Shown here in pieces: positions 20,074 through 57,020 of a stretch of DNA of 64,000 bases; positions within the stretch are counted from its first letter, which is position 1; each line of letters starts with the position of its first letter. Under the pieces are notes generated by a model that saw only the letters and a list, made by a program, of their open reading frames with translations, did not search any database and had not been told where the DNA came from. The translations under genes and the position numbers were made by a program. Where the stretch lies: contig JBMSSC010000001.1 of NCBI GenBank assembly GCA_049424145.1, positions 16,017 through 80,016 of the forward strand, read 5' to 3'. The stretch comes from Bdellovibrionia bacterium. Its GTDB lineage: Bacteria > Bdellovibrionota > UBA1018.

Positions 20074-22164
20074 TTGCTCTCCCGGTGTGTCATCGTTTTC
20101 GATATGACAACTAGAATAGGAATTCGCCTCCAGAAGTGGTTTCCTCTTGGTTTGTGTCTGTTTGTTTTTTTACTCGGCTTTGGGCTGAGAGGGGCCCCGG
20201 CTCACCCGGATGTCCTTTTTTCTCGAGAGCAGGAACTGGGCGTTGCATTCATTTTTCTAGGGTTCTTCCTCGGTCTGCTCTATTGGGGCAAAGCCCTTTT
20301 AGAGATCCTTCAATTGAGTCAATTGGGGTGGATCTATGGTCTAGCTTTGGGAAGTGCTGGCTGGTCTTGTATCGGGCTTCTCTTGGGATCATTAGGCTGG
20401 ATTGGGTATTCTTCTTTTTCTGCGCTGCTTTGCGGACTGTTTTTAGGGCCTCTTCTTCACTCCTATTTTTGGAGCCGATCTTGCGAGAATCAAAATCCCC
20501 CTCCGCAGCCGTTATCCGGCGCTCGAGTTTTGACTCAAGGGTTTAAAGGCATTTCTCTTGTGGAGGGTGTGATCTTTGGGCTTTTAATCTTCGTATGGAT
20601 TGGGTTCTGTTTGAATGCTTCGGGGGCTCACGGCACGAGCGATCCCTTTCTCTATCATCTTTTGGGTCCTAGGCTTTGGGTGGATGCTGGGAAGATTTAT
20701 CTTCCAGGTCCGATTCCGATTACGTTTCAAGCGTCCAGTTGGGAGATGCTGCTGGTTCTCTCTCAGATTCTTCTGGGGGCACCTGAGGGTTTTGGGCTCA
20801 TTGAGGGGCATTTGTTTTCTCAGTACCTTCATGTTGTGGTGGGCTTAGGAGGGGTGCTTGCGGTACTCTTTAAGCTCAGTCCCAAGGAAAGTGGCGTTCC
20901 TCGGTTTTGGATGGGCGTCGCCCTCTTAGGCGCTCTTCTGACTCCTGATCTTCGCGAGCTTTCGTGGTTAGGAAAAAATGATTGGGGGGTGCTCTTTTGG
21001 ATTTGCGCAGGCACGGCCCTGCTGTTGCGGCCGCCCAGTTCATCGTGGCGGCAGAAGGCTCTTGCGGCATTTCTGCTGGGTCTGGGGTGTGCGGGCAAGC
21101 CCAATTCCCTTTTTTTTGTGATTCCAGTTTTGGGATGTTTTGCCTTGCGTCCGCTTGAAGCCGATTCTCTTCGGAAGAGATTTTTTGAGCTTCTGGGCGT
21201 TGCAGGGTGGATCCTTTTGGGTGCTGCACCCATCCTGATCCGAAACTGGGCTTACACGGGGGCTCCATTGTTTCCCTTTGTTCAGCTCGGCTTGAATCCT
21301 GAGCTCGGAGGCCCACTCTCTTCATTCGCTCAGCTCACTCCCAGTCGTCTCACCGGAACATTCACGTTTTTTCAAAGCCAACTTCGATGGGTTTTAGCGG
21401 AACACTGGGTCTACACCTGGATTGTACTTGGGCCTTTGCTGGGATCTTTTTTTCGCGATCCCTTACTTCGAAAACTATCATGGATTTTGCCCATTTCTTC
21501 ACTTTGGTTTTTAGTTCTTGAAATCAATCATCAGTTTGTTCGGTGGTTGGGAGCTCCCTTGGTGCTTTCGGGTTTTTTACCCGTTCTTTTGTTGTCCGAT
21601 TTGTTGAATCGTGGATCAGGGGCGTGGAGAAAGCTCGGGTTTCAATCTGGGCTAGCCTTGGTCATGGCCCTGATTTTAACATCGCAAGTGGAGGTTAAAG
21701 GATGGTGGGCTATGCTTCATCGAGGTTCCCCCACGCACGTGATTCGCAATCCTGTGGTTCACTTGGGGGGGGACTCTAAGGCTTGGTTGCGTTTGAACGC
21801 AACGTTTGAGACCCCAATTGTGACCACGGGAGATAATCAGCTTTACTACCTCAGCTACCTTCCCGTGACGCCTCTCTCCTATGGCTTGGAGTTAAAACGG
21901 AAGCTTGAGTCTTTAAGACACTCCATTCTGATCTTTTCTCAACTCTATCAATTTGGCTATCGATACGTCTTGGATGTCATGCACTGGGACGATCAGTACT
22001 GGACGGATTATGCGTTCACGCTGGATCGGGCTATCCTCAACCTTCCTGAGGCAATCGTTTTTATGGGGCCTAGGTCAAAAGTCATCGACCTAAAAGTGCT
22101 CGTTGAATCCATGAACCAAAGCTGCGTTGGGACAAAGGGAAGTTGGATGACTCCGCCTACTTGA
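20074..22164 (+). CDS. large polytopic membrane protein with a C-terminal soluble domain (GT-C-fold-like, unassigned)
   Basis: 696 aa. About 14 predicted TM helices in the first 500 aa, then a ~180-aa hydrophilic C-terminal domain. The start may be the downstream ATG at 20104. Confidence 0.5.
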   Translation: MLSRCVIVFDMTTRIGIRLQKWFPLGLCLFVFLLGFGLRGAPAHPDVLFSREQELGVAFIFLGFFLGLLYWGKALLEILQLSQLGWIYGLALGSAGWSCIGLLLGSLGWIGYSSFSALLCGLFLGPLLHSYFWSRSCENQNPPPQPLSGARVLTQGFKGISLVEGVIFGLLIFVWIGFCLNASGAHGTSDPFLYHLLGPRLWVDAGKIYLPGPIPITFQASSWEMLLVLSQILLGAPEGFGLIEGHLFSQYLHVVVGLGGVLAVLFKLSPKESGVPRFWMGVALLGALLTPDLRELSWLGKNDWGVLFWICAGTALLLRPPSSSWRQKALAAFLLGLGCAGKPNSLFFVIPVLGCFALRPLEADSLRKRFFELLGVAGWILLGAAPILIRNWAYTGAPLFPFVQLGLNPELGGPLSSFAQLTPSRLTGTFTFFQSQLRWVLAEHWVYTWIVLGPLLGSFFRDPLLRKLSWILPISSLWFLVLEINHQFVRWLGAPLVLSGFLPVLLLSDLLNRGSGAWRKLGFQSGLALVMALILTSQVEVKGWWAMLHRGSPTHVIRNPVVHLGGDSKAWLRLNATFETPIVTTGDNQLYYLSYLPVTPLSYGLELKRKLESLRHSILIFSQLYQFGYRYVLDVMHWDDQYWTDYAFTLDRAILNLPEAIVFMGPRSKVIDLKVLVESMNQSCVGTKGSWMTPPT

Positions 22165-22171
22165 TGGGGCT

Positions 22172-22840
22172 CTAGTTCTTCCGCCGCGTTGATGTCTTCG
22201 TCTTTGCGTAAGTCAGGAAGATCTCATCCCCCAAGACGGTGCATTGTCTGAGCTTGAGGTTCAAAACCTCGCTGGGTTTAAATCCTTGGCCATCGACCAA
22301 CGAGGGAGCTGTGGCGCCGCCTACGATCTTTGGGGTGAGCGTGACATGGTACTCATCGATCAAGTTTTGGCTAGCAAAGTCCCACATGACGCCCCCTCCT
22401 CCTTCGACTAAGATTCGGGTCAGGTTCTGGGCTTTTAAGTGAGTTAAAATTTGGCGAGCCACTGGGTGTTTGGGGCCCGGTTTTTTTAGGAGCACCACCT
22501 CCGAGCTTCGAGAGAAGCGCATGAGGGTGGATTTTTCAATCCCTTCGGTGACAAAGAGGATTCGGCGAATCTTGGAGCTTTTAAAAAACGGCCAGCGCGG
22601 ATCTAAGCCTGCTAATCGAGAACTGATCAGAATATTGATGGGTTGCTTGGTCTGTCCTGAGATGACGCAGGGTTTTTGATAGACTCTCATGGTGGAGGCT
22701 CCCATCACGATGGCATCACAACGCCTTCTTAAGACTTCCATCTGTTTGAGGTCCTCTGCCGTTCCTAAGGGAAAGAAGGAGCGTTCACAGGTTGCGATTT
22801 TTCCATCCAGACTCATGGCAAGGTTTGAGAAAACAAACAT
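22172..22840 (-). CDS. RibD C-terminal-domain / dihydrofolate-reductase-family protein
   Basis: MFVFSNLAMSLDGKIA…IVMGASTM…ILVEGGGGV resembles the pyrimidine reductase (RibD_C) fold. Confidence 0.75.
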   Translation of the reverse strand: MFVFSNLAMSLDGKIATCERSFFPLGTAEDLKQMEVLRRRCDAIVMGASTMRVYQKPCVISGQTKQPINILISSRLAGLDPRWPFFKSSKIRRILFVTEGIEKSTLMRFSRSSEVVLLKKPGPKHPVARQILTHLKAQNLTRILVEGGGGVMWDFASQNLIDEYHVTLTPKIVGGATAPSLVDGQGFKPSEVLNLKLRQCTVLGDEIFLTYAKTKTSTRRKN

Positions 22841-22843
22841 GGA

Positions 22844-23485
22844 TCAACTCTCCTTGGATTGGGATGATTGAGGAGTGGGGGGGGTCTTTTTGTTCCCTAA
22901 GTACTGAAGCGCAATGAAGAAGATCTCCTTGCTTTCCTTGCGGGTGCTTTTAGGTCTTAACACTTCAATTCGGGCAAACTGGGCTCTGAGTTGCTTTCTT
23001 AAGCCTTCAAATTCGTCGCTGTGAAACAGCTTGCAGATAAAGGTGCCCTTGGGTTTTAAAAACAGTTCAGCACAGCTAAACGCTTTTTGGCAAAGCTCCA
23101 GCGAGCGAGCTTGGTCGGTGACTCGAATCCCGGTGGTTTTAGGGGCCATGTCCGAGAGCACCACATCAAAGGGGGGGCTGATGGAAGTCTGCTCAAATAA
23201 CTTCTCCAAGGAGAGTTCTCTTAGGTCGCCTTGGAAAAAATAAGCATTGGGCAAAGTCAGTTCAATGGCTTGAAGATCGACGCCCAGGAGTCGTCCTTTG
23301 GGTCCAATTCTCTCAGACGCATACTGAGACCAGGAGCCGGGTGCCGCACCTAAGTCCAGCATCTTTTGAGCGGGTTTGAAAACCTTAAAGCGCTCGTCGA
23401 TCTCTTTGAGCTTAAAGATGGAGCGGGCGACATAGTTTTCCTTCTTTGCTTGGAGAAAATAATAGTCTCTTGGATCGTACGCCAC
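22844..23485 (-). CDS. rlmE: 23S rRNA (uridine2552-2'-O)-methyltransferase RlmE/FtsJ
   Basis: N-terminal YRSRSAFKL-like SIFKLKEIDERFK. SAM motif LDLGAAPGSWSQYA. DxxxxxGDL and KxxxG motifs. Confidence 0.9.
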   Translation of the reverse strand: MAYDPRDYYFLQAKKENYVARSIFKLKEIDERFKVFKPAQKMLDLGAAPGSWSQYASERIGPKGRLLGVDLQAIELTLPNAYFFQGDLRELSLEKLFEQTSISPPFDVVLSDMAPKTTGIRVTDQARSLELCQKAFSCAELFLKPKGTFICKLFHSDEFEGLRKQLRAQFARIEVLRPKSTRKESKEIFFIALQYLGNKKTPPTPQSSQSKES

Positions 23486-26469
23486 AGTTTAAAACCTCAT
23501 TCCTGTGTTATCGCTGACTTTGCCATGCTGGGGCTTTTGAAAAGTCGCGGCATGAGACGTCCGCCCTGAAGTGCGGAAGTTTCCAATTTTTTCCTCACTA
23601 TACAGGGCAAAACAAGAAACGACTATCTGAACTTGCAAGGATCACATCGTCAAGCAATTCAGCGAGGCATTTTCACTGCATTGGAAGGGCGTTGCTTTTT
23701 GGGGCTCAATTCGTGGGTCTTTAGGTCTGGGAGTCGTGCCATGAGGTGACTGGGGAAGGTTTTGAGCCCATTTGACCTCAATCAGAGGGATTGAAGGCGT
23801 CCAGGAACGGAGTGAATCATCTTTGAAAATCGCGTGTTCAGATCCAGAGATCCAGAGATCCTGTTCGTGTGCTCTGAGAGATTCCGGTTTAAGGTCTTGT
23901 TTTTAAAAGGATGGGGCATGACTAGTTGCTTCGATCCTTGATTGATTAGCTTATTTAATATATTATTAAAATGTAACTTAATGAGCAAAACTCGCTTGAG
24001 TTTGCGTGGGTTCGATTGGGCGGAATCGGCTTTGATTTCATGGGTTTTGGTTAGGGTAAGAATCCAAGGGTTGAAGGAGCGAATTTGAGAGAGTTTTTTG
24101 AAAAAAAGCGTCAAGACCAGCCCCAAAAGAGGGTTTTACCTTGGCTCGGGTTAGTCGTGATTGGGTTGATCTGTGGGTCAATTTCCTCTCAAGCATCTTT
24201 ATTTAATGTGATGTCGTTTCTCAAAACACAATGGGTGAATACTCCGTATAAGAGGATCACGGGAGGGGCTGGTGATTCTGGAGCTAATTCCCACACCTGT
24301 GGTCTCACGTTTCAGGGGCAACTCAAGTGTTGGGGTTGGAACTCCAGTGGGCAGCTTGGACTAGGAACGGTAGGAGTCGGAGTGAGTTCCCCGACGGCTA
24401 TTGGAACGCCTTCGTTCGTTTCAGTCGCAGGGGGGTATCGCCATACGTGTGGAATTACAGCTAATCGGACTCTTCGGTGCTGGGGGTCTGATTCTTACGG
24501 TCAGGTGGGAAATGGTTCGCTGACCACCGCGGATCAAGCGTCTCCCGTGGCGATTGATTCATTAACCCCTTATGGCACTGTTGCGGCGGGAGGGTATCAC
24601 ACCTGCGGAATTACTCAGGCTGGAGATCTTAAATGTTGGGGCTGGAACAGCTCGGGACAACTCGGAAATGGAAATCCTGCTTCCGATGAGGCTTCGCCTT
24701 TCGGAATTGATTCTGGGACTTCTTACATTGAGATTACTGCGGGTTATGCTCATACCTGTGGAATTACAGGGGCTGGAGTTTTAAAATGCTGGGGCCTGAA
24801 TTCCAGTGGGCAAGTGGGAAACGGGGTAGTCGGAGGATCTTCCACATCTCCTGTGGAGATTGACTCAGGGACACCCTATATCGCCGTTTCAGCGGGAGAT
24901 GCTCATACCTGTGGGATTACCGGCGCTGGAGTGTTAAAATGCTGGGGCTCGGATTCGAACGGCAAGTTAGGAAACGGAACCTTAACGTCGGCCGACCAGC
25001 CCTCACCTGTGGTGATTGATTCGGGGACAACCTATCTTGCAGTTTCTGCTGGTGTTGAGCATACGTGTGGAATTACGGGAAGTGGAGTGCTTAAATGCTG
25101 GGGAAGTGATGCGAACGGTCAGTTAGGCAATGGGTCCACCAGTGGGAATCAGTTCTCCCCAGTGGCGACTAATTCCGGGGCAAATTATGTCGGGATTTGG
25201 TCCGGACGAAATCATACGTGTGCGATCACCAGTCGGGGGGTGCTTGAGTGCTGGGGGAGTGATGCCTCAGGCCAATTAGGAAATGGTTCAACTTTGACTT
25301 CCGATGTCCTTTCCCCAGCATCCATTGATAAGGATAGGTTTCAAAAAGGCATCTATCAAAAAACGGCCACCTCGGGGGCCTTTACTTCGTGCGGGGTGAT
25401 GAATTCGGGTGTGCTCAGGTGCTGGGGGAGTGATGCATTTAGTCAGTTGGGCAACGGAGGGACAGGCAATCAGACGATTCCTCGAATCACAAACTCTGGA
25501 GAAATTTATCGACAAGTCTCTGTGGGAGGATATGAATCCAATAGCTCCCATGCTTGTGGCATAACAGGATCCAATCAACTCAAGTGTTGGGGGAGTAATA
25601 CATCTGGGCAGGTGGGGATTGGGAACACGGCGGGTCCAGTGACGACTCCTCAATTGGTCAACGATCCGGGCACCCGGTATCGAAAAGTGAGTTTGGGCTG
25701 TTCACACACTTGCGGAATCACGACTGCAGGTCAGCTCAAGTGCTGGGGATATAATGGCTTTAGGGAGTTGGGTGGTCGAACCGGAGATTTAACGTCCCCA
25801 GGGGTCGTGGATTCGGGGAGCACATATCGAGACGTAGGAATGGGGTGTGGTTTCGGCTGTGGCATTACCACTCGTGGAGAGTTGAAATGCTGGGGGCAAA
25901 ATACCTCGGGTCAAGTGGGTAATGGAACGAGTGGTAGCTCTCAGTCTACCCCTGTGGTCATTGATTCCGGGATGACCTACCGAGCGATTTCAGGGGGGTA
26001 TAATTTCGCCTGCGGGATTGCCGCGAGCGGAACTTTGAAATGTTGGGGAAGCGATAACGCTGGACAGGTTGGGAACGGGGCAACTACAGGAAACCAACTG
26101 ACGCCTCAGCCTGTTAATGACCCAGGTACTGTTTACTCGGTGATTGCTTCAGGGTTCTACTATGCTTGCGGAATTACGGGTGTGGGAGCCTTAAAATGCT
26201 GGGGAAGTGATTCTGCAGGCCAATTAGGAAACGGCGCTGCAGTGAGTCAAGACTCTCCCATGTTAAGTGATTCGGGGACCTTATACACCGAGGTTGGATC
26301 TGCCCTGGGTTCAGCTAATTGGGGTCACAGCTGTGGAATCACGGTTGGGGGAATTCTCAGGTGCTGGGGACGCAATAACTCTGGGCAACTGGGCATCGGT
26401 AACACCGCGAATCAAACTTCCCCCGTTGATGTGGTTCGTTAAGTGAGGCTGGGTGGCGTGAGCGCGCTT
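23239..26469. repeat. tandem duplication unit 1 (3,231 bp): 5' 247 bp of rlmE, the intergenic/promoter region and the RCC1-repeat gene
   Basis: Identical to 26470..29700. I checked both boundaries directly: …ccttggaaaaaa|taagcattgg at the upstream edge and gagcgcgctt|aataagcattgg at the internal junction. All ORFs recur at a constant +3231 offset with identical translations. Confidence 0.9.
24085..26442 (+). CDS. secreted or membrane-anchored RCC1-repeat protein (14 blades, probably two 7-bladed beta-propellers), copy 1
   Basis: TTG start 5 nt after aaggag. N-terminal KR-rich segment plus a hydrophobic helix (signal peptide or anchor). Fourteen ~50-aa repeats with consensus HTCGIT-G-LKCWG-N-SGQLGNG…SP--I-SG--Y. 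Confidence 0.85.
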   Translation: MREFFEKKRQDQPQKRVLPWLGLVVIGLICGSISSQASLFNVMSFLKTQWVNTPYKRITGGAGDSGANSHTCGLTFQGQLKCWGWNSSGQLGLGTVGVGVSSPTAIGTPSFVSVAGGYRHTCGITANRTLRCWGSDSYGQVGNGSLTTADQASPVAIDSLTPYGTVAAGGYHTCGITQAGDLKCWGWNSSGQLGNGNPASDEASPFGIDSGTSYIEITAGYAHTCGITGAGVLKCWGLNSSGQVGNGVVGGSSTSPVEIDSGTPYIAVSAGDAHTCGITGAGVLKCWGSDSNGKLGNGTLTSADQPSPVVIDSGTTYLAVSAGVEHTCGITGSGVLKCWGSDANGQLGNGSTSGNQFSPVATNSGANYVGIWSGRNHTCAITSRGVLECWGSDASGQLGNGSTLTSDVLSPASIDKDRFQKGIYQKTATSGAFTSCGVMNSGVLRCWGSDAFSQLGNGGTGNQTIPRITNSGEIYRQVSVGGYESNSSHACGITGSNQLKCWGSNTSGQVGIGNTAGPVTTPQLVNDPGTRYRKVSLGCSHTCGITTAGQLKCWGYNGFRELGGRTGDLTSPGVVDSGSTYRDVGMGCGFGCGITTRGELKCWGQNTSGQVGNGTSGSSQSTPVVIDSGMTYRAISGGYNFACGIAASGTLKCWGSDNAGQVGNGATTGNQLTPQPVNDPGTVYSVIASGFYYACGITGVGALKCWGSDSAGQLGNGAAVSQDSPMLSDSGTLYTEVGSALGSANWGHSCGITVGGILRCWGRNNSGQLGIGNTANQTSPVDVVR

Positions 26470-26716
26470 AATAAGCATTGGGCAAAGTCAGTTCAATGGC
26501 TTGAAGATCGACGCCCAGGAGTCGTCCTTTGGGTCCAATTCTCTCAGACGCATACTGAGACCAGGAGCCGGGTGCCGCACCTAAGTCCAGCATCTTTTGA
26601 GCGGGTTTGAAAACCTTAAAGCGCTCGTCGATCTCTTTGAGCTTAAAGATGGAGCGGGCGACATAGTTTTCCTTCTTTGCTTGGAGAAAATAATAGTCTC
26701 TTGGATCGTACGCCAC
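26468..26716 (-). pseudogene. truncated rlmE' fragment (first 82 codons) created by the tandem duplication
   Basis: Translation is identical to RlmE residues 1-82. A TAA is generated at the duplication junction. The promoter region is retained. Confidence 0.8.
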
Positions 26717-29700
26717 AGTTTAAAACCTCATTCCTGTGTTATCGCTGACTTTGCCATGCTGGGGCTTTTGAAAAGTCGCGGCATGAGACGTCCGCCCTGA
26801 AGTGCGGAAGTTTCCAATTTTTTCCTCACTATACAGGGCAAAACAAGAAACGACTATCTGAACTTGCAAGGATCACATCGTCAAGCAATTCAGCGAGGCA
26901 TTTTCACTGCATTGGAAGGGCGTTGCTTTTTGGGGCTCAATTCGTGGGTCTTTAGGTCTGGGAGTCGTGCCATGAGGTGACTGGGGAAGGTTTTGAGCCC
27001 ATTTGACCTCAATCAGAGGGATTGAAGGCGTCCAGGAACGGAGTGAATCATCTTTGAAAATCGCGTGTTCAGATCCAGAGATCCAGAGATCCTGTTCGTG
27101 TGCTCTGAGAGATTCCGGTTTAAGGTCTTGTTTTTAAAAGGATGGGGCATGACTAGTTGCTTCGATCCTTGATTGATTAGCTTATTTAATATATTATTAA
27201 AATGTAACTTAATGAGCAAAACTCGCTTGAGTTTGCGTGGGTTCGATTGGGCGGAATCGGCTTTGATTTCATGGGTTTTGGTTAGGGTAAGAATCCAAGG
27301 GTTGAAGGAGCGAATTTGAGAGAGTTTTTTGAAAAAAAGCGTCAAGACCAGCCCCAAAAGAGGGTTTTACCTTGGCTCGGGTTAGTCGTGATTGGGTTGA
27401 TCTGTGGGTCAATTTCCTCTCAAGCATCTTTATTTAATGTGATGTCGTTTCTCAAAACACAATGGGTGAATACTCCGTATAAGAGGATCACGGGAGGGGC
27501 TGGTGATTCTGGAGCTAATTCCCACACCTGTGGTCTCACGTTTCAGGGGCAACTCAAGTGTTGGGGTTGGAACTCCAGTGGGCAGCTTGGACTAGGAACG
27601 GTAGGAGTCGGAGTGAGTTCCCCGACGGCTATTGGAACGCCTTCGTTCGTTTCAGTCGCAGGGGGGTATCGCCATACGTGTGGAATTACAGCTAATCGGA
27701 CTCTTCGGTGCTGGGGGTCTGATTCTTACGGTCAGGTGGGAAATGGTTCGCTGACCACCGCGGATCAAGCGTCTCCCGTGGCGATTGATTCATTAACCCC
27801 TTATGGCACTGTTGCGGCGGGAGGGTATCACACCTGCGGAATTACTCAGGCTGGAGATCTTAAATGTTGGGGCTGGAACAGCTCGGGACAACTCGGAAAT
27901 GGAAATCCTGCTTCCGATGAGGCTTCGCCTTTCGGAATTGATTCTGGGACTTCTTACATTGAGATTACTGCGGGTTATGCTCATACCTGTGGAATTACAG
28001 GGGCTGGAGTTTTAAAATGCTGGGGCCTGAATTCCAGTGGGCAAGTGGGAAACGGGGTAGTCGGAGGATCTTCCACATCTCCTGTGGAGATTGACTCAGG
28101 GACACCCTATATCGCCGTTTCAGCGGGAGATGCTCATACCTGTGGGATTACCGGCGCTGGAGTGTTAAAATGCTGGGGCTCGGATTCGAACGGCAAGTTA
28201 GGAAACGGAACCTTAACGTCGGCCGACCAGCCCTCACCTGTGGTGATTGATTCGGGGACAACCTATCTTGCAGTTTCTGCTGGTGTTGAGCATACGTGTG
28301 GAATTACGGGAAGTGGAGTGCTTAAATGCTGGGGAAGTGATGCGAACGGTCAGTTAGGCAATGGGTCCACCAGTGGGAATCAGTTCTCCCCAGTGGCGAC
28401 TAATTCCGGGGCAAATTATGTCGGGATTTGGTCCGGACGAAATCATACGTGTGCGATCACCAGTCGGGGGGTGCTTGAGTGCTGGGGGAGTGATGCCTCA
28501 GGCCAATTAGGAAATGGTTCAACTTTGACTTCCGATGTCCTTTCCCCAGCATCCATTGATAAGGATAGGTTTCAAAAAGGCATCTATCAAAAAACGGCCA
28601 CCTCGGGGGCCTTTACTTCGTGCGGGGTGATGAATTCGGGTGTGCTCAGGTGCTGGGGGAGTGATGCATTTAGTCAGTTGGGCAACGGAGGGACAGGCAA
28701 TCAGACGATTCCTCGAATCACAAACTCTGGAGAAATTTATCGACAAGTCTCTGTGGGAGGATATGAATCCAATAGCTCCCATGCTTGTGGCATAACAGGA
28801 TCCAATCAACTCAAGTGTTGGGGGAGTAATACATCTGGGCAGGTGGGGATTGGGAACACGGCGGGTCCAGTGACGACTCCTCAATTGGTCAACGATCCGG
28901 GCACCCGGTATCGAAAAGTGAGTTTGGGCTGTTCACACACTTGCGGAATCACGACTGCAGGTCAGCTCAAGTGCTGGGGATATAATGGCTTTAGGGAGTT
29001 GGGTGGTCGAACCGGAGATTTAACGTCCCCAGGGGTCGTGGATTCGGGGAGCACATATCGAGACGTAGGAATGGGGTGTGGTTTCGGCTGTGGCATTACC
29101 ACTCGTGGAGAGTTGAAATGCTGGGGGCAAAATACCTCGGGTCAAGTGGGTAATGGAACGAGTGGTAGCTCTCAGTCTACCCCTGTGGTCATTGATTCCG
29201 GGATGACCTACCGAGCGATTTCAGGGGGGTATAATTTCGCCTGCGGGATTGCCGCGAGCGGAACTTTGAAATGTTGGGGAAGCGATAACGCTGGACAGGT
29301 TGGGAACGGGGCAACTACAGGAAACCAACTGACGCCTCAGCCTGTTAATGACCCAGGTACTGTTTACTCGGTGATTGCTTCAGGGTTCTACTATGCTTGC
29401 GGAATTACGGGTGTGGGAGCCTTAAAATGCTGGGGAAGTGATTCTGCAGGCCAATTAGGAAACGGCGCTGCAGTGAGTCAAGACTCTCCCATGTTAAGTG
29501 ATTCGGGGACCTTATACACCGAGGTTGGATCTGCCCTGGGTTCAGCTAATTGGGGTCACAGCTGTGGAATCACGGTTGGGGGAATTCTCAGGTGCTGGGG
29601 ACGCAATAACTCTGGGCAACTGGGCATCGGTAACACCGCGAATCAAACTTCCCCCGTTGATGTGGTTCGTTAAGTGAGGCTGGGTGGCGTGAGCGCGCTT
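26470..29700. repeat. tandem duplication unit 2 (3,231 bp), identical to unit 1
   Basis: It ends …gagcgcgctt, and the unique sequence resumes with taaaatcgtc at 29701. Confidence 0.9.
27316..29673 (+). CDS. RCC1-repeat protein, copy 2 (identical to copy 1)
   Basis: 785-aa translation identical to 24085..26442. Its own copy of the upstream region is included in the repeat. Confidence 0.85.
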   Translation: MREFFEKKRQDQPQKRVLPWLGLVVIGLICGSISSQASLFNVMSFLKTQWVNTPYKRITGGAGDSGANSHTCGLTFQGQLKCWGWNSSGQLGLGTVGVGVSSPTAIGTPSFVSVAGGYRHTCGITANRTLRCWGSDSYGQVGNGSLTTADQASPVAIDSLTPYGTVAAGGYHTCGITQAGDLKCWGWNSSGQLGNGNPASDEASPFGIDSGTSYIEITAGYAHTCGITGAGVLKCWGLNSSGQVGNGVVGGSSTSPVEIDSGTPYIAVSAGDAHTCGITGAGVLKCWGSDSNGKLGNGTLTSADQPSPVVIDSGTTYLAVSAGVEHTCGITGSGVLKCWGSDANGQLGNGSTSGNQFSPVATNSGANYVGIWSGRNHTCAITSRGVLECWGSDASGQLGNGSTLTSDVLSPASIDKDRFQKGIYQKTATSGAFTSCGVMNSGVLRCWGSDAFSQLGNGGTGNQTIPRITNSGEIYRQVSVGGYESNSSHACGITGSNQLKCWGSNTSGQVGIGNTAGPVTTPQLVNDPGTRYRKVSLGCSHTCGITTAGQLKCWGYNGFRELGGRTGDLTSPGVVDSGSTYRDVGMGCGFGCGITTRGELKCWGQNTSGQVGNGTSGSSQSTPVVIDSGMTYRAISGGYNFACGIAASGTLKCWGSDNAGQVGNGATTGNQLTPQPVNDPGTVYSVIASGFYYACGITGVGALKCWGSDSAGQLGNGAAVSQDSPMLSDSGTLYTEVGSALGSANWGHSCGITVGGILRCWGRNNSGQLGIGNTANQTSPVDVVR

Positions 29701-29800
29701 TAAAATCGTCTTATTTCAGGTGTGTTCCGAGAATGGGGTGATGCTGTGTCGTTGTCGTCTCTGGGTTGATTTGCCGCTTAGGCACCTGAGGCAAGGCTCC

Positions 29801-30547
29801 CTAAACAATTCGGGCAAAAAACTTTCGAGTCTCCTCAGCCACATAGGCTTCAATGAGTTTGGCGTGAGCTGGGTTGATCCCCCGAAAAACGATTCCGACT
29901 TTGATCTTCTCTTCGGTGTCTGAGGGGTGGGATTTGGGTAGTCGCCTTAAATGCAGCACTTCACCGCAAAGGGTCAGGGTCTCGGATCGGAGGGAAATAC
30001 TCATGCCCTCGATTCGTTGGCCCACGTAAAAGGGCATGCGCTCCTGGTCTTCTGTTAAAAAGGAAAGGCCTCCTGAGCTGATGTCGTAGATCTTCTTTCG
30101 GATGACGGTGGCGGAAGCTCGGGGGTCTACAAACTCAACTCGCAGGACGTAGCCTTGAAGGATGCGAAACCGCTGGTTTTTTCGTCGCTGAGCCCGAAAC
30201 AGGCGCTTGGGAAGGGAGAACTCCAAGTGGGTGAATGAAGTGGAGATGAGCTGGGCTGGAAAAAAAAGAGTGGCTCGCTCCAAGGAGACGTTAAACAAAC
30301 AGCGATCCCCTGCGGCTTGGAGCTTGGGATAGAACTCATCTCGATTGCAATCCAAAGGAGGGGTGGTGAAGATGAGTTTCTTCAATTGGCTCAGTCCCAT
30401 GAAAGAGCAGCGTTTGGGCTCGGGGTGCTCTTGAGTCCAAATGAGGGTGGCAGCGCTAATTTTTACCGCTTCATCAAAGTACTTGATGATTTCAAGCGGG
30501 TCGGTGACTTCGGTGAGTTCATTGGAGTGGCTTTGAGCCTCAGACAA
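29801..30547 (-). CDS. YcgR-like c-di-GMP-binding protein (PilZN-like N-domain + PilZ domain)
   Basis: RxxxR motif (QRRKNQRFR, residues ~121-126) and D-x-S-x-G-G motif (DISSGGLSF). The 248-aa size matches YcgR-type proteins. It overlaps the mreB stop by 8 nt. Confidence 0.7.
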
Positions 30548-49947: not shown

Positions 49948-51336
49948 ATGTTTGATATCAATCAGTTGGTTGCTCAAGGCGCAAAAATAAAAGTAGTTGG
50001 GGTCGGGGGGAGTGGTTGCAACGCAGTGAATACCATGATTCGCACGGGGCTTGAGGGCGTTGAATTTATAACGGCGAACACCGATCGGCAGGCGTTGGAT
50101 GCTTCTTTGGCTCCTGTGAAACTTGCGATCGGCCAAGAGTTGACCAAAGGGCTTGGAGCCGGAGCGAATCCCGAAGTGGGACGAAATGCTGCTTTAGAAG
50201 ATTACGCAAAAATCTCAGACCTCCTCTCGGGCTCAGACATGGTTTTCATCACTGCCGGTATGGGCGGTGGCACGGGAACAGGAGCCGCACCTGTATTTGC
50301 AAAAATTGCAAAAGAAGTGGGTGCTTTAACGGTGGGTGTGGTGACTAAACCGTTTCTTTTTGAAGGTCGTAAGAGAATGAAGCACGCTGAGCAGGGGATG
50401 AACTGCTTAAGAGAGAGTGTGGACTCGCTCATTACAATTCCAAACCAGAGACTTCTTGCGATTTCAGGCGCTACGTTGTCGATGGTGGATGCATTTAAAA
50501 AAGCTGATGAAGTTTTACTCAATGCAGTGCAGGGGATTTCTGATTTGATCAATCACACCGGTCTGATCAACAGTGACTTTGCCGACGTTAAGACGATTAT
50601 GCAGAATAAGGGCCTTGCCCTTATGGGGATCGGTTACGGGGATGGAGAGCACCGCGCGGTGGAGGCTGCGACCAACGCTATTTCCAGCCCTCTGCTTGAG
50701 GATGTCTCCATTGATGGCGCAACAGGGATCATCATTAATATTACGGGTGGAGAGACTCTGAAGATTCATGAAGTCAATGAGGCGACTACGCTGATTATGG
50801 AAGCGGCTCATGAGGATGCAGAAATCATCTTTGGTACGGTGATTGATGAAGCGTTTAAAGACCGTGTGAAAGTCACGGTGATTGCAACAGGGTTGGGCAA
50901 TAGCATTCGAGCCGCGCAGCAGCCTGAAAGAGTGAAGGAAAAAACGAGCTCCTCTGTTTTTGTTCCGCCTCAATATGCCGTGAATTCAGAGGCCTCTGCG
51001 AATTCCTCAGCTCAAGTGATGCCGCCTGCGCCTCCTGCGGCATTGAACTCCTCTCCCACAGGAGCTTCAGTTGTCGCGGAGTCTCAGCCAGGGGTATCTT
51101 TCAGTGCAGCCTCAGCGGATCCTTTGCTTCAAGCGGGCTCCGCTCATGCTCATGAGCCTCAGGGTCTTTCAGCCATCCCGCCGGTTCCTCCGACCTTGAA
51201 TCCAGGCGTGGGCGCTGAGACAGGAGAATTGGCTCGGGCTCGTTTGATTGCGCAAAAACTGGGAATCACCAACCTAACGGATGATCAGTATGTTCCGCCT
51301 GCGTATCTCAGAAGAGCTCAGGAGCCAGAAATTTAG
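49948..51336 (+). CDS. ftsZ: cell division GTPase FtsZ
   Basis: Tubulin signature GGGTGTG, T7 loop NLDFADV-like (NSDFADVKT), a long disordered linker, and a C-terminal conserved peptide [14 protein letters not shown]. Confidence 0.95.
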
Positions 51337-51618: not shown

Positions 51619-53061
51619 ATGTTGACGACTCACTCATCCCATAAAACAACTTGGGGCCTGATTTGGCTCAGTATCCTGCTGTTTTGGGGAGTCTCTTGGG
51701 AAGCTGAATTTGGAATGGACGCCATGACTTATGCGGGGTTGGCTCGACGGATCCTCATTCATCAAGACTGGAAAACTCTCCATTATTCTTCGCAGGGGTA
51801 TGAGAATTTCTATCAACATCCGCCTCTGGTGATGTGGCTTCTTGCGGGGGTGTTTAAAATCACGGGTGTCGCCAACGAGTGGACCGCGAAGATTCTTCCG
51901 TATCTTTTTTCCCTGGGGACTCTTCTGATGACCATTTTTTGGGGCTCTCAGGCGGCTCAGAGTTCATGGGGAGGTTTTCTTTCGGGCTTGATTCTTTTAA
52001 CTTCGACCCGTTTTATCAAGTATGCGCCGAGCCCGCTTTTAGATGGTTTTTTGGCCTTCTGGCTGATTCTGGGGGGATGGCTCTTGCTTCAATCCTTCAA
52101 TCCCAAAAGTAAGCCTTGGATTTGGGGTCCTCTGCAGGGAGTTTGTCTGGCTGGAGGGTTCTTAACCAAAGGGATGCCGACGCTGCTGCTGTTTTTTGGA
52201 CTGATGGCAAGCTGGATCACTCAGGGAGTGGTGAAGCGATCGAGGAAGGTCAATTTAGGTTTTTTTTTAGCGCTCACTGTCTTGGGTTGGATTCTATCCC
52301 TTTGGCTTTATGTGGGAGACGGACTGAATTATTTGGAGCATTATTGGATTGAGTCGGTCCAAGGGCGCCTGGGAGGGCACTCAGGATGGTTGGATTGGCT
52401 TGCTCCTATGCGTAATTTGTTTAAGGGGTACTGGCCCTGGAACTTGGTTTATTTTTATTCGATCTATGTGATTTGTGTGAAACAGACCAGGGCTAGAAAC
52501 GTCCTGTTTGAGCAAAAAATCACATCTTGGATTCCCCTTCTCGCATCTCTTGGGGTTTTAGGGGGCTTTTCGCTTTCGGGTCATTTCTTAGAACACTACT
52601 TAGTTCCCTTTTATCCCTTTGCCGCGATCGCCAGTGCCGTCTCCATTGCTCAGGTGACTGAACAGTGGAGGGAGGGAGTTACAAGGGTTTTTTTTATTCT
52701 TCTGATTTTTGTTACCCTCCTTCTGGCCACCTTTCCTATTCATACACAAGGGGTGGATTATCAAGATCCTCAGCGTAGGTTGCTGAAACGAGCGGCGAGC
52801 TCCTGTCATGGAGGGATTCGTCGGATTTATCTCTCTGCCGATGAGACGTCGTTTTGGTGGGGCTTGGCGATGGGAACTTGGTATACGCCATGGGATACGC
52901 GGGTTTTGAATCCGTCTGAGATCCCAGTAGATGAAAGGTCCGCACTTTTATTGAGCCGAAGACGAAATGACCTAGCAGGCAGCTGGGTGATGACCTCGTT
53001 GATTGAGGGGGATTTCAGGGTGTACCAGCGTCCAAATTCCCAAGCCTGTCCTGAGCTTTAA
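51619..53061 (+). CDS. GT-C-fold glycosyltransferase (ArnT/PMT family, GT83/GT39-like)
   Basis: First periplasmic loop with acidic motif (SWEAEFGMDAMTYAGLAR), KPPL-like YQHPPLVMWL, ~11 TM helices. 480 aa. Confidence 0.7.
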   Translation: MLTTHSSHKTTWGLIWLSILLFWGVSWEAEFGMDAMTYAGLARRILIHQDWKTLHYSSQGYENFYQHPPLVMWLLAGVFKITGVANEWTAKILPYLFSLGTLLMTIFWGSQAAQSSWGGFLSGLILLTSTRFIKYAPSPLLDGFLAFWLILGGWLLLQSFNPKSKPWIWGPLQGVCLAGGFLTKGMPTLLLFFGLMASWITQGVVKRSRKVNLGFFLALTVLGWILSLWLYVGDGLNYLEHYWIESVQGRLGGHSGWLDWLAPMRNLFKGYWPWNLVYFYSIYVICVKQTRARNVLFEQKITSWIPLLASLGVLGGFSLSGHFLEHYLVPFYPFAAIASAVSIAQVTEQWREGVTRVFFILLIFVTLLLATFPIHTQGVDYQDPQRRLLKRAASSCHGGIRRIYLSADETSFWWGLAMGTWYTPWDTRVLNPSEIPVDERSALLLSRRRNDLAGSWVMTSLIEGDFRVYQRPNSQACPEL

Positions 53062-54020: not shown

Positions 54021-55439
54021 ATGCAGATACCAAGGATGGCTTTGCTTTTGAGTTTGACTCTCGGGGTCAGTCTCAGTTTTGGGCTGGGTCGTGTGAGCGC
54101 CGCTGATTTTAAACCAGGAGAGCTCATCGTGAAGTACAAAAGCGGAGCGATCCGAACGCGCGCTCAAGTGAATGCACTTTACCAAACTGTGGGAGTCAAA
54201 AGTGCCAATCACTTCTCGGGCGTGATGACTGGGTTTGATCACTGGATCTTGGATGAGGGGGTTAAGCTTCAGGACGCGATTCATGAGGTCAGTCAAAGTG
54301 AGCTCGTCGAATATGCTCAGCCCAACTACGTTCTGCATGTGCTTCCGATCGAAGACGAATCAGAGGATCCTGACTTCACCCCTGCACTTGCCGCTTTGGG
54401 GAAGTGCTGGTTTCCTGGGGTGAGTTTTCCCCCGGGTTGCGAGAAAAAAAGTGCAACTCAGCCTAAGCCAGGGGAGCTGGCTGATAGTCGGCCTGCACTT
54501 CAGGAACCACCGCTTGAGGTGATCCCTTCGTTAAAAGATCCTGATTTGAGTCGTGACTATGGCATGGCCAAGATTCGTGCCAATGAGGCCTGGGCTGTAA
54601 CTCGCGGATCCAAAGAGATCGTGGTGGCTGATATTGATACGGGAATTGACTATAATCATGAGGATTTGGCGTTCAATGTGTGGAGGAATCCTAATCCGGG
54701 AGAGAAGAACGACATCGTGGGATTTGATTTCGTCCATAATGATGGATTGCCATATGACGACAATGGACATGGCACTCACACAGCAGGAACGATTGGAGCT
54801 GTCGGAGGAAACGGGATAGGGACCTCGGGAGTGATTCAGAGGGTCTCCATCATGAGTCTTAAGTTCTTAGATGGGGACGGAAGTGGAACCACTGCCGATG
54901 CGATTCGAGCGATTGATTATGCCATTGAGCATGGCGCCAGGGTCTTGAGTAATAGTTGGGGTGGCCGTGGTGATCCAGATAATCCGGCTCTGAAAGAAGC
55001 GATTGATCGGGTTAAAGCAAAAGATGTGCTTTTTGTCGCAGCAGCCGGCAATGATGGAGTCGATAATGATGGTCCGAACGCGAGTTATCCTGCTGCATTC
55101 ACAACCGAAAACCTGATTTCAGTTGCGGCAACAGATGAGCGAGATGGTTTGGCCTCTTTCTCCAATTATGGAAAAAAGACGACCCACCTTGCAGCACCTG
55201 GAGTGAAGATCTACAGTACGGCTCCAGGGAGTCGCTATAAGAGTCTCTCGGGGACCTCCATGGCGTGTCCCCATGTGGCAGGCGCTGCAGCCTTGCTCTG
55301 GTCTATTCATCCAAACTGGGGCTATCAGAAAATTAAAGAGGTTCTTCTCGGTACCGTAGATCCGGTGTCCTCGCTTGCTCGAAAGACGATCACAGGTGGG
55401 AGGCTTAACGTGGGACGGGCCCTGAATTATTCTGAGTAG
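54021..55439 (+). CDS. secreted subtilisin-like serine protease (S8) with N-terminal propeptide
   Basis: Signal peptide. Catalytic triad motifs DTGIDYNHEDL, HGTHTAG and GTSMACPHVAGAAALL. Confidence 0.85.
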   Translation: MQIPRMALLLSLTLGVSLSFGLGRVSAADFKPGELIVKYKSGAIRTRAQVNALYQTVGVKSANHFSGVMTGFDHWILDEGVKLQDAIHEVSQSELVEYAQPNYVLHVLPIEDESEDPDFTPALAALGKCWFPGVSFPPGCEKKSATQPKPGELADSRPALQEPPLEVIPSLKDPDLSRDYGMAKIRANEAWAVTRGSKEIVVADIDTGIDYNHEDLAFNVWRNPNPGEKNDIVGFDFVHNDGLPYDDNGHGTHTAGTIGAVGGNGIGTSGVIQRVSIMSLKFLDGDGSGTTADAIRAIDYAIEHGARVLSNSWGGRGDPDNPALKEAIDRVKAKDVLFVAAAGNDGVDNDGPNASYPAAFTTENLISVAATDERDGLASFSNYGKKTTHLAAPGVKIYSTAPGSRYKSLSGTSMACPHVAGAAALLWSIHPNWGYQKIKEVLLGTVDPVSSLARKTITGGRLNVGRALNYSE

Positions 55440-55577: not shown

Positions 55578-57020
55578 GTGGGGACAATTCAAAAGATATT
55601 AAGATTCGGCCTAGGGTTTCTCGGGATTGGATTGCTCCATCCTGCTTGGGCCCAGCTACCCTTTGTTCAAGGCGAGGTTTTAGTGAAGTACAAGCAGGGG
55701 GTTCTGCGTGAGCGTGTGAGTATGAATGCGCTTTACGATTCCGTGGGAGCCTCTCGTGTTCATCGGTTTCACGGGGCTGTGGGGAGTTTTGAGAAACTGG
55801 TCTTAGACGATCGCCAGGGAGTGGCCGAGGTCGTTAGTCGCTTACAAAATGAAGATTCTGTGGAATGGGCGCAGCCGAACTACCTTCTTCATCTTCTGCC
55901 GGTATTTCCGGCTGCGGAACGACAAGTGCGTGAGCCGCAAATTGAGACTCTGCCGTTTGCTCCATGGGCATCGGAGTTGGCGGGGTTGAGTCCATGGGAT
56001 GATTCCGGTTCTGAGGCTGAGATCAGCCGTAGGAAGCCAAAAAAAGACCCCTCTTTCGATCGTCCCCGGATTCATCCGCTGCCTCTGCATGAACCTGAGG
56101 TCGTGGTTGATCCCGATTTAGCTCAAGCCTATGGTTTGAGTAAGATTGGGGCGCCTCAGGTCTGGCCGTTTGCTCGCGGGAGTCGCTCCATTATCGTGGC
56201 GGATATCGATACGGGAGTGGATTATAATCATCCAGACTTAGTTTTTAATATTTGGAGAAATCCCCATCCGGTGAAGAACGATTTAGTGGGATTTGATTTT
56301 GTCCACCAAGATGGATTGCCCTACGATGACAATGAACATGGGACCCATGTGGCAGGGATCATTGGGGCGGTCGGGTCCAATGGTCTGGGAGTTTCCGGGG
56401 TGAGTCAGCGGGTCTCAATCATGGTGCTGAAATTCCTCAGTGGATCGGGCTCAGGAACAACCTCCGATGCGATTGAAGCCATTGATTATGCCGTATCGCA
56501 CGGAGCAAAGGTTTTAAATAACAGTTGGGGCAGCTCTGGCGGGTCAGGCAAGGACAATCAGTTGCTGATTGAGGCGTTTCATCGGGCCCGAGATCGGGGA
56601 GTGTTATTCATTGCTGCAGCCGGCAATGAAGGAAATGATAACGACGGCGAAGAAGCGGACTATCCGGCGGCCTTTCATTTGGAAAATGAGATTGCCGTGG
56701 CGGCAAGTGATGAAAAAGATGAGCTTGCTGAGTTCTCCAACTACGGGAAAAAAACCACTCACCTTGCTGCCCCTGGGGTTAACATCTACAGCACGGTTCC
56801 AGGAGGGGGCTATCGGGCGCTTTCAGGATCTTCTATGGCTGCTCCGATGGTGTCCGGAGCAGCGGCTCTGCTTTGGTCTGCACATCCGGATTGGACGGAT
56901 CAACAAATTAAGCAGGCTCTTTTGGATTCAGTCGATGCGATCCCCTCGCTGAAGGCTAAGGTCAGTACGGGGGGAAGACTCAATGTGGCCAATGCATTTT
57001 TTAGGCGCATCGGCCATTAA
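55578..57020 (+). CDS. secreted subtilisin-like serine protease (S8), paralogue of 54021..55439
   Basis: GTG start. Signal peptide. DTGVDYNHPDL, HGTHVAG, GSSMAAPMVSGAAALL. Co-linear with the upstream paralogue. Confidence 0.85.
   Translation: MGTIQKILRFGLGFLGIGLLHPAWAQLPFVQGEVLVKYKQGVLRERVSMNALYDSVGASRVHRFHGAVGSFEKLVLDDRQGVAEVVSRLQNEDSVEWAQPNYLLHLLPVFPAAERQVREPQIETLPFAPWASELAGLSPWDDSGSEAEISRRKPKKDPSFDRPRIHPLPLHEPEVVVDPDLAQAYGLSKIGAPQVWPFARGSRSIIVADIDTGVDYNHPDLVFNIWRNPHPVKNDLVGFDFVHQDGLPYDDNEHGTHVAGIIGAVGSNGLGVSGVSQRVSIMVLKFLSGSGSGTTSDAIEAIDYAVSHGAKVLNNSWGSSGGSGKDNQLLIEAFHRARDRGVLFIAAAGNEGNDNDGEEADYPAAFHLENEIAVAASDEKDELAEFSNYGKKTTHLAAPGVNIYSTVPGGGYRALSGSSMAAPMVSGAAALLWSAHPDWTDQQIKQALLDSVDAIPSLKAKVSTGGRLNVANAFFRRIGH

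Follow-up and report, generated by a model that had tools for sequence, protein, structure and literature searches.

Background

Unequal homologous crossing-over between pre-existing repeats, together with IS elements and transposons, is given as the commonest source of bacterial duplications overall (Reams and Roth, as cited in sections of PMC9997567 and PMC11111574). A homology-free class of junctions, sharing 0-5 bp, is known from the amplification of the cat gene in Acinetobacter baylyi (Reams & Neidle 2004), for which the summary in PMC9997567 describes head-to-tail repeats, no IS or long repeats, and a duplicated segment that then serves as substrate for RecA-driven expansion or loss; the amplicons in that summary came out of laboratory selection, range over 12-290 kb and have been confirmed by PCR and PFGE. 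In the lac system of Escherichia coli all 31 sequenced amplification junctions carry 4-15 bp of microhomology (PMC1428787), and in Salmonella the verified junctions all have at least 11 bp, those of low microhomology resembling simulated chimeric reads (PMC3411829).

Here, I describe a direct tandem repeat in a contig of an uncultivated member of the Bdellovibrionia. It resembles the A. baylyi duplications, as PMC9997567 summarises them, in its head-to-tail arrangement, in a junction within the 0-5 bp range, in the lack of IS or long repeats and in providing a segment on which RecA could act, but the unit measures 3.2 kb, belongs to one metagenome bin and is known from assembled sequence alone. 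With the E. coli lac and Salmonella cases it shares a direct tandem repeat without long homology and a single novel junction, whereas that junction shows 0 nt of shared sequence and no imperfect homology nearby.

Results

Structure of the repeat

In the window (the whole stretch of 64,000 nt that was analysed), direct comparison shows two head-to-tail copies of 3231 bp with 0 mismatches, 23239-26469 being equal to 26470-29700. The features of the locus are as follows.

22172..22840, minus strand: RibD_C-family reductase gene, 3' of rlmE, conserved left flank, single copy (profile match, synteny)
22844..23485, minus strand: rlmE, intact, FtsJ-family 23S rRNA 2'-O-methyltransferase, 213 aa (Pfam FtsJ, record name, synteny)
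23239..26469, no strand: duplication unit copy 1, 3231 bp, identical to 26470-29700
23486..24084, no strand: divergent rlmE-RCC1 spacer copy 1, 599 bp, with a sigma70-like site at 23938-23966 and an AAGGAG RBS at 24074-24079
24085..26442, plus strand: RCC1-repeat gene copy 1, 785 aa, TTG start (Pfam, 14 blades, AF2 model)
26460..26480, no strand: novel junction ...GAGCGCGCTT/AATAAGCATTG... (boundary between the two), 0 nt microhomology, making the minus-strand TAA of rlmE'
26468..26716, minus strand: rlmE' fragment, 82 aa (codons 1-82 plus junction-made stop), FtsJ profile positions 1-58 of 181
26470..29700, no strand: duplication unit copy 2, 3231 bp, identity with copy 1 stopping at both edges
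26717..27315, no strand: rlmE'-RCC1 spacer copy 2, 599 bp, same sequence, promoter-like site at 27169-27197
27316..29673, plus strand: RCC1-repeat gene copy 2, 785 aa, identical to copy 1 (ORF scan, own GenBank accession)
29801..30547, minus strand: pilZ-domain gene, conserved right flank, single copy (Pfam PilZ)

The two copies abut without spacer, and the periodic region gains 0 nt leftward (A vs T) and 0 nt rightward (T vs A). The window contains no N or IUPAC letters, and an exact repeat of 3.2 kb cannot have arisen by chance. Copy 1 contains the first 247 nt of the intact rlmE, so that the left edge of the unit is the first base of codon 83 (247/3 = 82.3), while on the right it runs 27 bp beyond the stop codon of RCC1 and ends 100 bp before the pilZ stop. 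The parental flanks are in place: the left one consists of the 3' part of rlmE and ribD_C, the right one of pilZ-mreB, and four relatives have the same order of backbone genes. The product thus comprises one intact rlmE, one rlmE' stub and two full-length RCC1-repeat genes (785 aa), both preceded by a 599-bp spacer; all original genes stay intact, and the second complete RCC1 gene that is gained brings an RBS, a promoter-like site and upstream DNA of its own. An earlier note on this DNA had proposed the perfect identity, a unit running from inside rlmE (codon ~82, here placed precisely at 83) to 27 bp beyond the RCC1 stop, and the same anatomy; all three are confirmed, the last by the ORFs. 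GenBank carries the duplication too: in the deposited entry, a 96,266-bp contig of a Bdellovibrionia MAG, the RCC1 protein was given consecutive accessions, MFZ9594486.1 and MFZ9594487.1, both on that one contig.

The junction

The junction may also be written as GAGCGCGCTT followed by AATAAGCATTGG. The microhomology, previously put at 0-2 nt, is exactly 0, for identity ends at both edges; such a blunt join is expected in ~56% of random joins. Imperfect homology between the breakpoint neighbourhoods was not detected either, a local alignment of +/-40 nt scoring 7 against a random 7.9 +/- 1.6. Neither the 37-mer across the junction nor the 32-mer at the unit end has a match among JGI metagenome contigs (0 matches for each).

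The junction carries an 11-nt palindrome, GCTTA-A-TAAGC, which is worth noting but too weak a basis for a claim, given that a comparable one occurs in 1.9% of random joins and that several features were inspected. Hairpins at the breakpoints, considered as a stalling signal, were rejected, because the minimum free energies of the 40-nt segments rank at percentiles 23 and 42 among random positions of the window.

rlmE, its fragment and the upstream spacer

The intact rlmE product matches Pfam FtsJ at 183 bits over 181/181 profile positions and TIGR00438 (rrmJ) at 180 bits, under the equivalog cut-off of 300; the source record names it 'RlmE family'. The rlmE' fragment retains the start codon and upstream DNA, and its TAA stop is formed by one base of the unit and the two bases with which the preceding copy ends (...GCTTATTAA vs native ...GCTTATTTT); it is a dead stub of 82 codons. 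On the other flank, the PilZ protein is 30% identical to the PilZ of L062 at the syntenic position.

The upstream region had been described as AT-rich, which is an overstatement: the 599-bp spacer is so only mildly, with a GC content of 0.45 vs 0.50 in the window, and just one stretch of 100 bp (23886-23985) is at 0.30. No RNA element was found in the spacer, either at the Rfam gathering score or at E<=1. The promoter-like site is a consensus match alone, terminator and promoter scans yielding sites no more numerous than in shuffled sequence.

The RCC1-repeat protein

The 785-aa product is predicted from its AF2 model to be two seven-bladed RCC1 propellers in one chain. It matches PF25390 (WD40_RLD) at 347 bits (cut-off 150), PF13540 (RCC1_2) at 289 bits and PF00415 (RCC1) at 223 bits, all three scores exceeding their cut-offs by a wide margin, and has 14 CWG motifs at ~51-aa spacing, i.e. 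14 blades. The model has a pLDDT of 82.6, with a low-confidence linker at 416-425, and each half superposes on UVR8 with a TM score of 0.89-0.91 and an rmsd of 1.6-2.0 A. The N-terminus resembles a Sec signal peptide, and together with the Pfam matches and the model it supports the earlier description as a secreted beta-propeller, export being predicted.

The RCC1-like seven-bladed propeller is common to UVR8, RCC1, the HERC2 RLD, RPGR and bacterial RCC1-repeat proteins; the protein at this locus differs in having two propellers, a signal-like N-terminus and two invariant Cys per blade. Most of its relatives in Bdellovibrio (1100-1360 aa) have Ig-like C-terminal domains, which it lacks. Guanine-nucleotide exchange on a Ran-like GTPase, as by RCC1 proper and Legionella effectors, is a function that an exported Cys-rich bacterial protein gives no reason to expect.

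Relatives and genomic context

The best RCC1 match in a scan of GTDB species representatives has 42% identity; in a search of 5.8 billion proteins, the self match (100%) is followed by an RCC1 protein at 46%, the nearest RlmE being at 72%, and neither search revealed a sister genome. Look-ups of the exact proteins gave no record for RCC1, rlmE', RibD_C, the PBP-like protein and P0001. RCC1 adjoining rlmE was not found elsewhere in 59 loci. The RCC1 gene appears to be lineage-specific cargo in a variable slot of a conserved mreB-pilZ-rlmE-ribD_C backbone, since the mreB/pilZ-rlmE slot in four relatives is either empty or occupied by CoA_transf_3 or a 695-aa protein. A remnant of the CoA-transferase at the window locus was sought by tblastn and rejected (no match better than E=2.5), as was a '696-aa protein + RCC1' module shared with locus L060, for which there is no similarity, the equal length being a coincidence.

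Discussion

Genuine duplication or artefact

Assemblers normally collapse exact repeats and do not invent them, and as a rule a junction enters a contig only if reads span it. In my judgement there is an even chance that an uncultivated member of the Bdellovibrionia carries a genuine tandem duplication of very recent date in its chromosome, perhaps still segregating in the population. This account is ranked ahead of an artefact, the other possibility that the earlier note had named, although the sequence by itself cannot decide between the two. It is favoured by the exact head-to-tail repeat with intact parental flanks, by its presence in a deposited assembly where it is annotated twice, by the full ORF, AAGGAG RBS and promoter-like site of both copies, by the location of RCC1 in a variable slot, which makes it the kind of accessory gene that undergoes amplification, and by the precedent of the subtilase pair mentioned below. 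On the other hand, zero divergence and zero microhomology are exactly what a chimeric join or an assembly error gives, and the case stands on a single MAG, with no independent assembly or sister strain and with the junction absent from the JGI contigs.

The strongest competitor, somewhat short of an even chance, is that the organism is single-copy (rlmE-spacer-RCC1-pilZ) and that the second copy was falsely written, be it through chimeric read(s), a loop of the assembly graph that was wrongly traversed, or contig-merging or polishing after assembly. MEGAHIT by itself could not produce such a path; SPAdes, by traversing a loop, or a long-read assembler could. The 100% identity, the blunt join of a kind that over half of random joins would show and the breakpoint neighbourhoods without homology beyond chance all fit such an origin, as does the fact that the contig comes from a metagenome bin of which protein searches and JGI contigs gave no replicate. 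Verified enterobacterial duplications, moreover, almost always have at least 4 bp of microhomology, and junctions with little of it match simulated chimeras (PMC1428787, PMC3411829); with the latter (PMC3411829) the locus has in common that two genomic positions are joined bluntly, that microhomology is absent and that the copies are perfectly identical. However, chimeric-read junctions are normally of low coverage and kept out of the consensus, whereas this one is interior to a deposited 96-kb contig. An artefact also sits poorly with the usual collapsing of exact repeats. The repeat lies at least 23 kb from each contig end with no adjoining Ns, and its 3231-bp unit is not of k-mer length; it therefore does not bear the signature of an end overlap or of gap filling. 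The genes around the repeat are long and unbroken, and the assembly is therefore not a noisy draft. A search for literature on tandem duplications made by assemblers returned nothing usable.

Far less probable, though compatible with the same contig, is a real junction in a structure other than two fixed copies, i.e. three or more copies, a duplication confined to a subpopulation, or a chromosomal copy accompanied by a circular 3.2-kb excision product. Each of them yields the graph flank-unit-junction-unit-flank, of which an assembler would write the minimal two-copy path; the sequence does not pin down the copy number, and tandem duplications are unstable and segregate or expand, as stated in parts of PMC9997567 and PMC12607827. 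Against this, the unit has no recombinase, att-like repeat or replication function, for which reason a maintained circle is unlikely.

Formation of the join

That unequal homologous crossing-over between pre-existing repeats, or an IS or transposon, made the duplication is, judged from the sequence, already refuted, common as these routes are, because the periodic region is exactly 2 x 3231 bp long, without a partial third repeat (the R-D-R-D-R signature, with a third repeat copy at the outer boundary, is absent), no other long repeats or inverted-repeat pairs exist in the window (0), TRF found nothing, domain scans of the window proteins show no transposase in or beside the unit, and of the features that mark a mobile element (transposase, terminal inverted repeats and a target-site duplication) the first two are thus wanting.

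If the tandem duplication is real, its join would be homology-independent, illegitimate and of a documented class. With a 0-nt junction and no mobile element it falls under short-homology-independent illegitimate recombination (0-5 bp junction), in the sense in which the relevant section of PMC9997567 defines it, and lacks the shared sequence of at least ~3-4 bp, either of the unit end with the left flank or of the unit start with the right flank, that characterises a microhomology-mediated event (template switch, MMBIR-like). A DNA end situated 27 bp beyond the stop codon of RCC1 would have been joined to rlmE codon 83 on the sister chromosome, and the joining would have proceeded without base-pairing, by illegitimate recombination of the end-joining type (Ku/LigD) or of the topoisomerase type (subunit exchange by gyrase or topoisomerase); Ku and LigD were not seen among the proteins scanned in the 64-kb window. 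The earlier note had likewise set aside recombination between long pre-existing repeats, which the exact period and the lack of flanking or inverted repeats rule out, and had argued for an illegitimate join, which would hold for a real duplication in view of the lack of IS, long repeat or breakpoint homology; its replication slippage was overstated, because slippage needs homology and the junction has none.

Consequences of a genuine duplication

A genuine tandem duplication would roughly double the dosage of the predicted exported double-propeller protein, and the promoter of rlmE' would drive antisense transcription into the 3' end of the first RCC1 copy. The array would also be unstable, RecA being able to collapse or expand it, and because of this instability its presence in a consensus assembly would imply either that dosage is selected for or that the array arose very recently. 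A more ambitious joint reading, which I consider unlikely, holds that a natural amplification was caught in the act: RCC1 dosage would be under selection, the gene being newly acquired and serving e.g. prey or surface interaction in a Bdellovibrionia predator, the array would perhaps be polymorphic or of higher copy number, and the truly blunt, homology-free join would imply NHEJ-like or topoisomerase-mediated duplication in this lineage.

Real or artefact, the event is of an ordinary kind, a single tandem duplication in one MAG, and no new mechanism is opened, because tandem duplications with 0-5 bp junctions have already been described. If real, it would offer a clean natural example, in an uncultivated lineage, of the first step in gene-family expansion, and would flag the RCC1 propeller as a protein of which a larger supply benefits the organism. 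If an artefact, it would call for caution, the deposited MAG then carrying a false second RCC1 gene and a false rlmE pseudogene.

In the same window, two secreted S8 subtilases that share 54% identity form an older tandem pair. This genome therefore has a precedent for the tandem duplication of genes encoding exported proteins.

The duplicated unit

Direct comparison of 23239-26469 with 26470-29700 gives 3231 bp with 0 mismatches. The base before copy 1 is A where the last base of the unit is T, and the base after copy 2 is T where the first is A; identity thus ends exactly at both outer edges, so that the periodic region measures exactly 2 x 3231 bp and the microhomology at the junction is 0 nt. 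The earlier note described the duplication accurately (identical 3231-bp copies, one intact rlmE, one truncated rlmE', two RCC1-repeat genes) and was right that microhomology is low, but its range of 0-2 nt narrows to none. The window consists of A, C, G and T only and, the diverged repeats internal to RCC1 aside, contains neither further long repeats nor inverted ones; TRF reported nothing. The features concerned are:

22844-23485, minus strand: rlmE, intact, 213 aa (Pfam FtsJ, 183 bits)
23239: start of the unit, first base of rlmE codon 83
24085-26442 and 27316-29673, plus strand: RCC1 genes, two identical 785-aa ORFs
26468-26716, minus strand: rlmE', codons 1-82 followed by a TAA made by the junction
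26469 / 29700: end of the unit, 27 bp beyond the RCC1 stop and 100 bp before the convergent pilZ stop at 29801

In essence, the unit comprises the whole RCC1 cargo together with the initial 247 nt of rlmE. At the junction the native sequence ...GCTTATTTT changes to ...GCTTATTAA. Positions 26464-26474 also form an 11-nt palindrome (GCTTA-A-TAAGC); comparable ones form in 1.9% of cases when window sequence is joined at random, and this one is probably due to chance.

Both RCC1 ORFs start with TTG, preceded by AAGGAG at 5-nt spacing, and each has its own promoter-like site (TTGATT-17-TATTAT), of a kind that is not enriched relative to shuffled sequence. The spacer between rlmE and RCC1 is 599 bp long, in keeping with the upstream region of about 600 bp noted earlier, but calling it AT-rich was an overstatement: its GC content is 0.45 versus 0.50 for the window, and only 23886-23985 (GC 0.30) is truly AT-rich. 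It has no Rfam match, even at E<=1. A 114-aa ORF antisense to the RCC1 start region (23782-24126 and 27013-27357, minus strand) overlaps the RCC1 ribosome-binding site and start; it has no Pfam match and is probably not a gene.

The RCC1 protein

Pfam assigns to the protein WD40_RLD (347 bits, cut-off 150), 12 RCC1_2 stretches and 9 RCC1 stretches, and 14 'CWG' motifs, 49-57 aa apart, indicate 14 blades. The AlphaFold2 model, built from a 20-sequence alignment, has a mean pLDDT of 82.6; from about residue 67 onward its secondary structure is entirely beta, and a break of low confidence, at residues 416-425, separates two halves. In Foldseek, about 370 model residues superpose on the seven-bladed propeller of UVR8 (TM 0.89-0.91, normalised to target; rmsd 1.6-2.0 A), followed by RPGR, HERC2 and RCC1; sequence matches in the PDB agree. 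The N-terminus carries a charged segment, next a hydrophobic stretch at about residues 17-33, and finally SQA|S. In each of the 14 blades (residues 72-760) two cysteines are separated by 10 residues (HTC...KCWG; 28 in total), and these pairs, invariant across 20 bacterial homologues, suggest that every blade has a single disulfide and that the protein lies outside the cytoplasm. It would then be a Sec-exported, disulfide-stabilised double propeller. Most Bdellovibrio relatives are longer, at 1100-1360 aa, and contain Ig-like domains.

Gene neighbourhood

The window is housekeeping chromosome, in the order hutH, amidohydrolase, PAP2, redoxin, 696-aa membrane protein, ribD_C, rlmE, the two RCC1 genes, pilZ, mreB, AMP nucleosidase, PBP, rsmH, ftsI, mur genes and ftsZ. 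Four relatives, located via RlmE (about 67-69% identical), share this backbone. The variable slot, 23486-29800 in the window, corresponds in their loci to the coordinates listed first below, each followed by the gene order around it:

L062, 4940-8001: mreB - pilZ - 695-aa protein - CoA_transf_3 - rlmE - ribD_C - redoxin - PAP2
L063, 2696-3707: mreB - pilZ - CoA_transf_3 - rlmE
L064, 5992-6001: mreB - rlmE
L065, 5063-6001: mreB - pilZ - CoA_transf_3 - rlmE

In the relatives the slot holds CoA_transf_3, with or without the 695-aa protein, or is empty, whereas in the window it holds RCC1 on the opposite strand. Since none of the four has an RCC1 gene between pilZ/mreB and rlmE, and no CoA-transferase remnant was found in the window, RCC1 with its 599-bp upstream DNA is an opposite-strand, lineage-specific cargo of a variable slot.

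The 696-aa protein (20074-22164, plus strand) has a strong T skew (AT skew -0.35), appears to cross the membrane several times and matches nothing in Pfam or NCBIfam; relatives have only a 76-77-aa ORF between redoxin and ribD_C, and the gene looks like a further lineage-specific insertion. Directly downstream of ftsZ (49948-51336) lies a gene resembling membrane glycosyltransferases of the PMT (dolichyl-phosphate-mannose-type) family (51619-53061, plus strand); the L062 relative likewise has a PMT_2 gene near its mreB cluster. Two adjoining S8 subtilase genes (54021-55439 and 55578-57020, both plus strand) have fervidolysin-like prodomains; their proteins are 54% identical (repeat family D5, 71% nucleotide identity over 267 nt), and the pair represents an old tandem duplication in which a gene for a secreted protein was copied.

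Real duplication or assembly artefact

A protein search returned an NCBI 'MAG: RCC1 domain-containing protein [Bdellovibrionia bacterium]' of 785 aa, 100% identical, on a 96,266-bp contig, and an exact-sequence look-up showed this single sequence to hold two consecutive accessions, MFZ9594486.1 and MFZ9594487.1. The duplication is thus present in the deposited assembly, annotated as two adjacent genes, and was not created by the cutting of the window.

The two readings offered earlier, recent amplification and assembly artefact, are the right ones: the repeat is either a tandem duplication, of a kind already known, or a mistake in the assembly, and does not represent a new system. A real duplication, polymorphic or not, is given an even chance. 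Besides being deposited, it lies inside the contig (at least 23 kb from both ends), is free of Ns and does not have the length of a k-mer, all of which also tells against an artefact; the ORFs around it are long and uninterrupted, the gene it carries is accessory, and the same window holds the older subtilase pair. Exact repeats are generally collapsed by assemblers, which was counted in the same direction. An artefact nevertheless retains a substantial probability, somewhat short of even: perfect identity together with a blunt junction is the mark of a chimera, the source is a single metagenome bin, and the collections searched hold no second, independent sequence of the organism. The small remainder goes to a real junction with another copy number or topology.

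Mechanism and consequences

With no long flanking repeat, RecA-dependent unequal crossing-over is excluded, as the earlier note had argued in favouring illegitimate joining; with no IS element, so is IS-mediated duplication. Microhomology-mediated template switching fails too, for the junction lacks microhomology and the breakpoint neighbourhoods lack imperfect homology (local score 7 versus 7.9 +/- 1.6 for random pairs). Replication slippage, also proposed, would have had no homology to slip on, and neither breakpoint shows an unusual hairpin. These exclusions leave short-homology-independent illegitimate joining, by which the duplication, if real, would have formed; it is a class documented in PMC9997567. 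The 0-nt junction is unlike those of typical enterobacterial duplications: every lac amplification junction in E. coli showed microhomology, 4-15 bp long (PMC1428787), and the Salmonella junctions confirmed by experiment were limited to those with at least 11 bp, the ones with little microhomology matching simulated chimeric reads (PMC3411829).

A real duplication would provide two fully equipped RCC1 genes, at roughly double dosage, and leave rlmE-ribD_C untouched. The rlmE' stub keeps the SAM-motif region and is presumably inactive, because only 58 of the 181 FtsJ profile positions are retained. Its promoter would face the 3' end of RCC1 copy 1 in antisense orientation, and read-through from copy 1 could raise transcription of copy 2.
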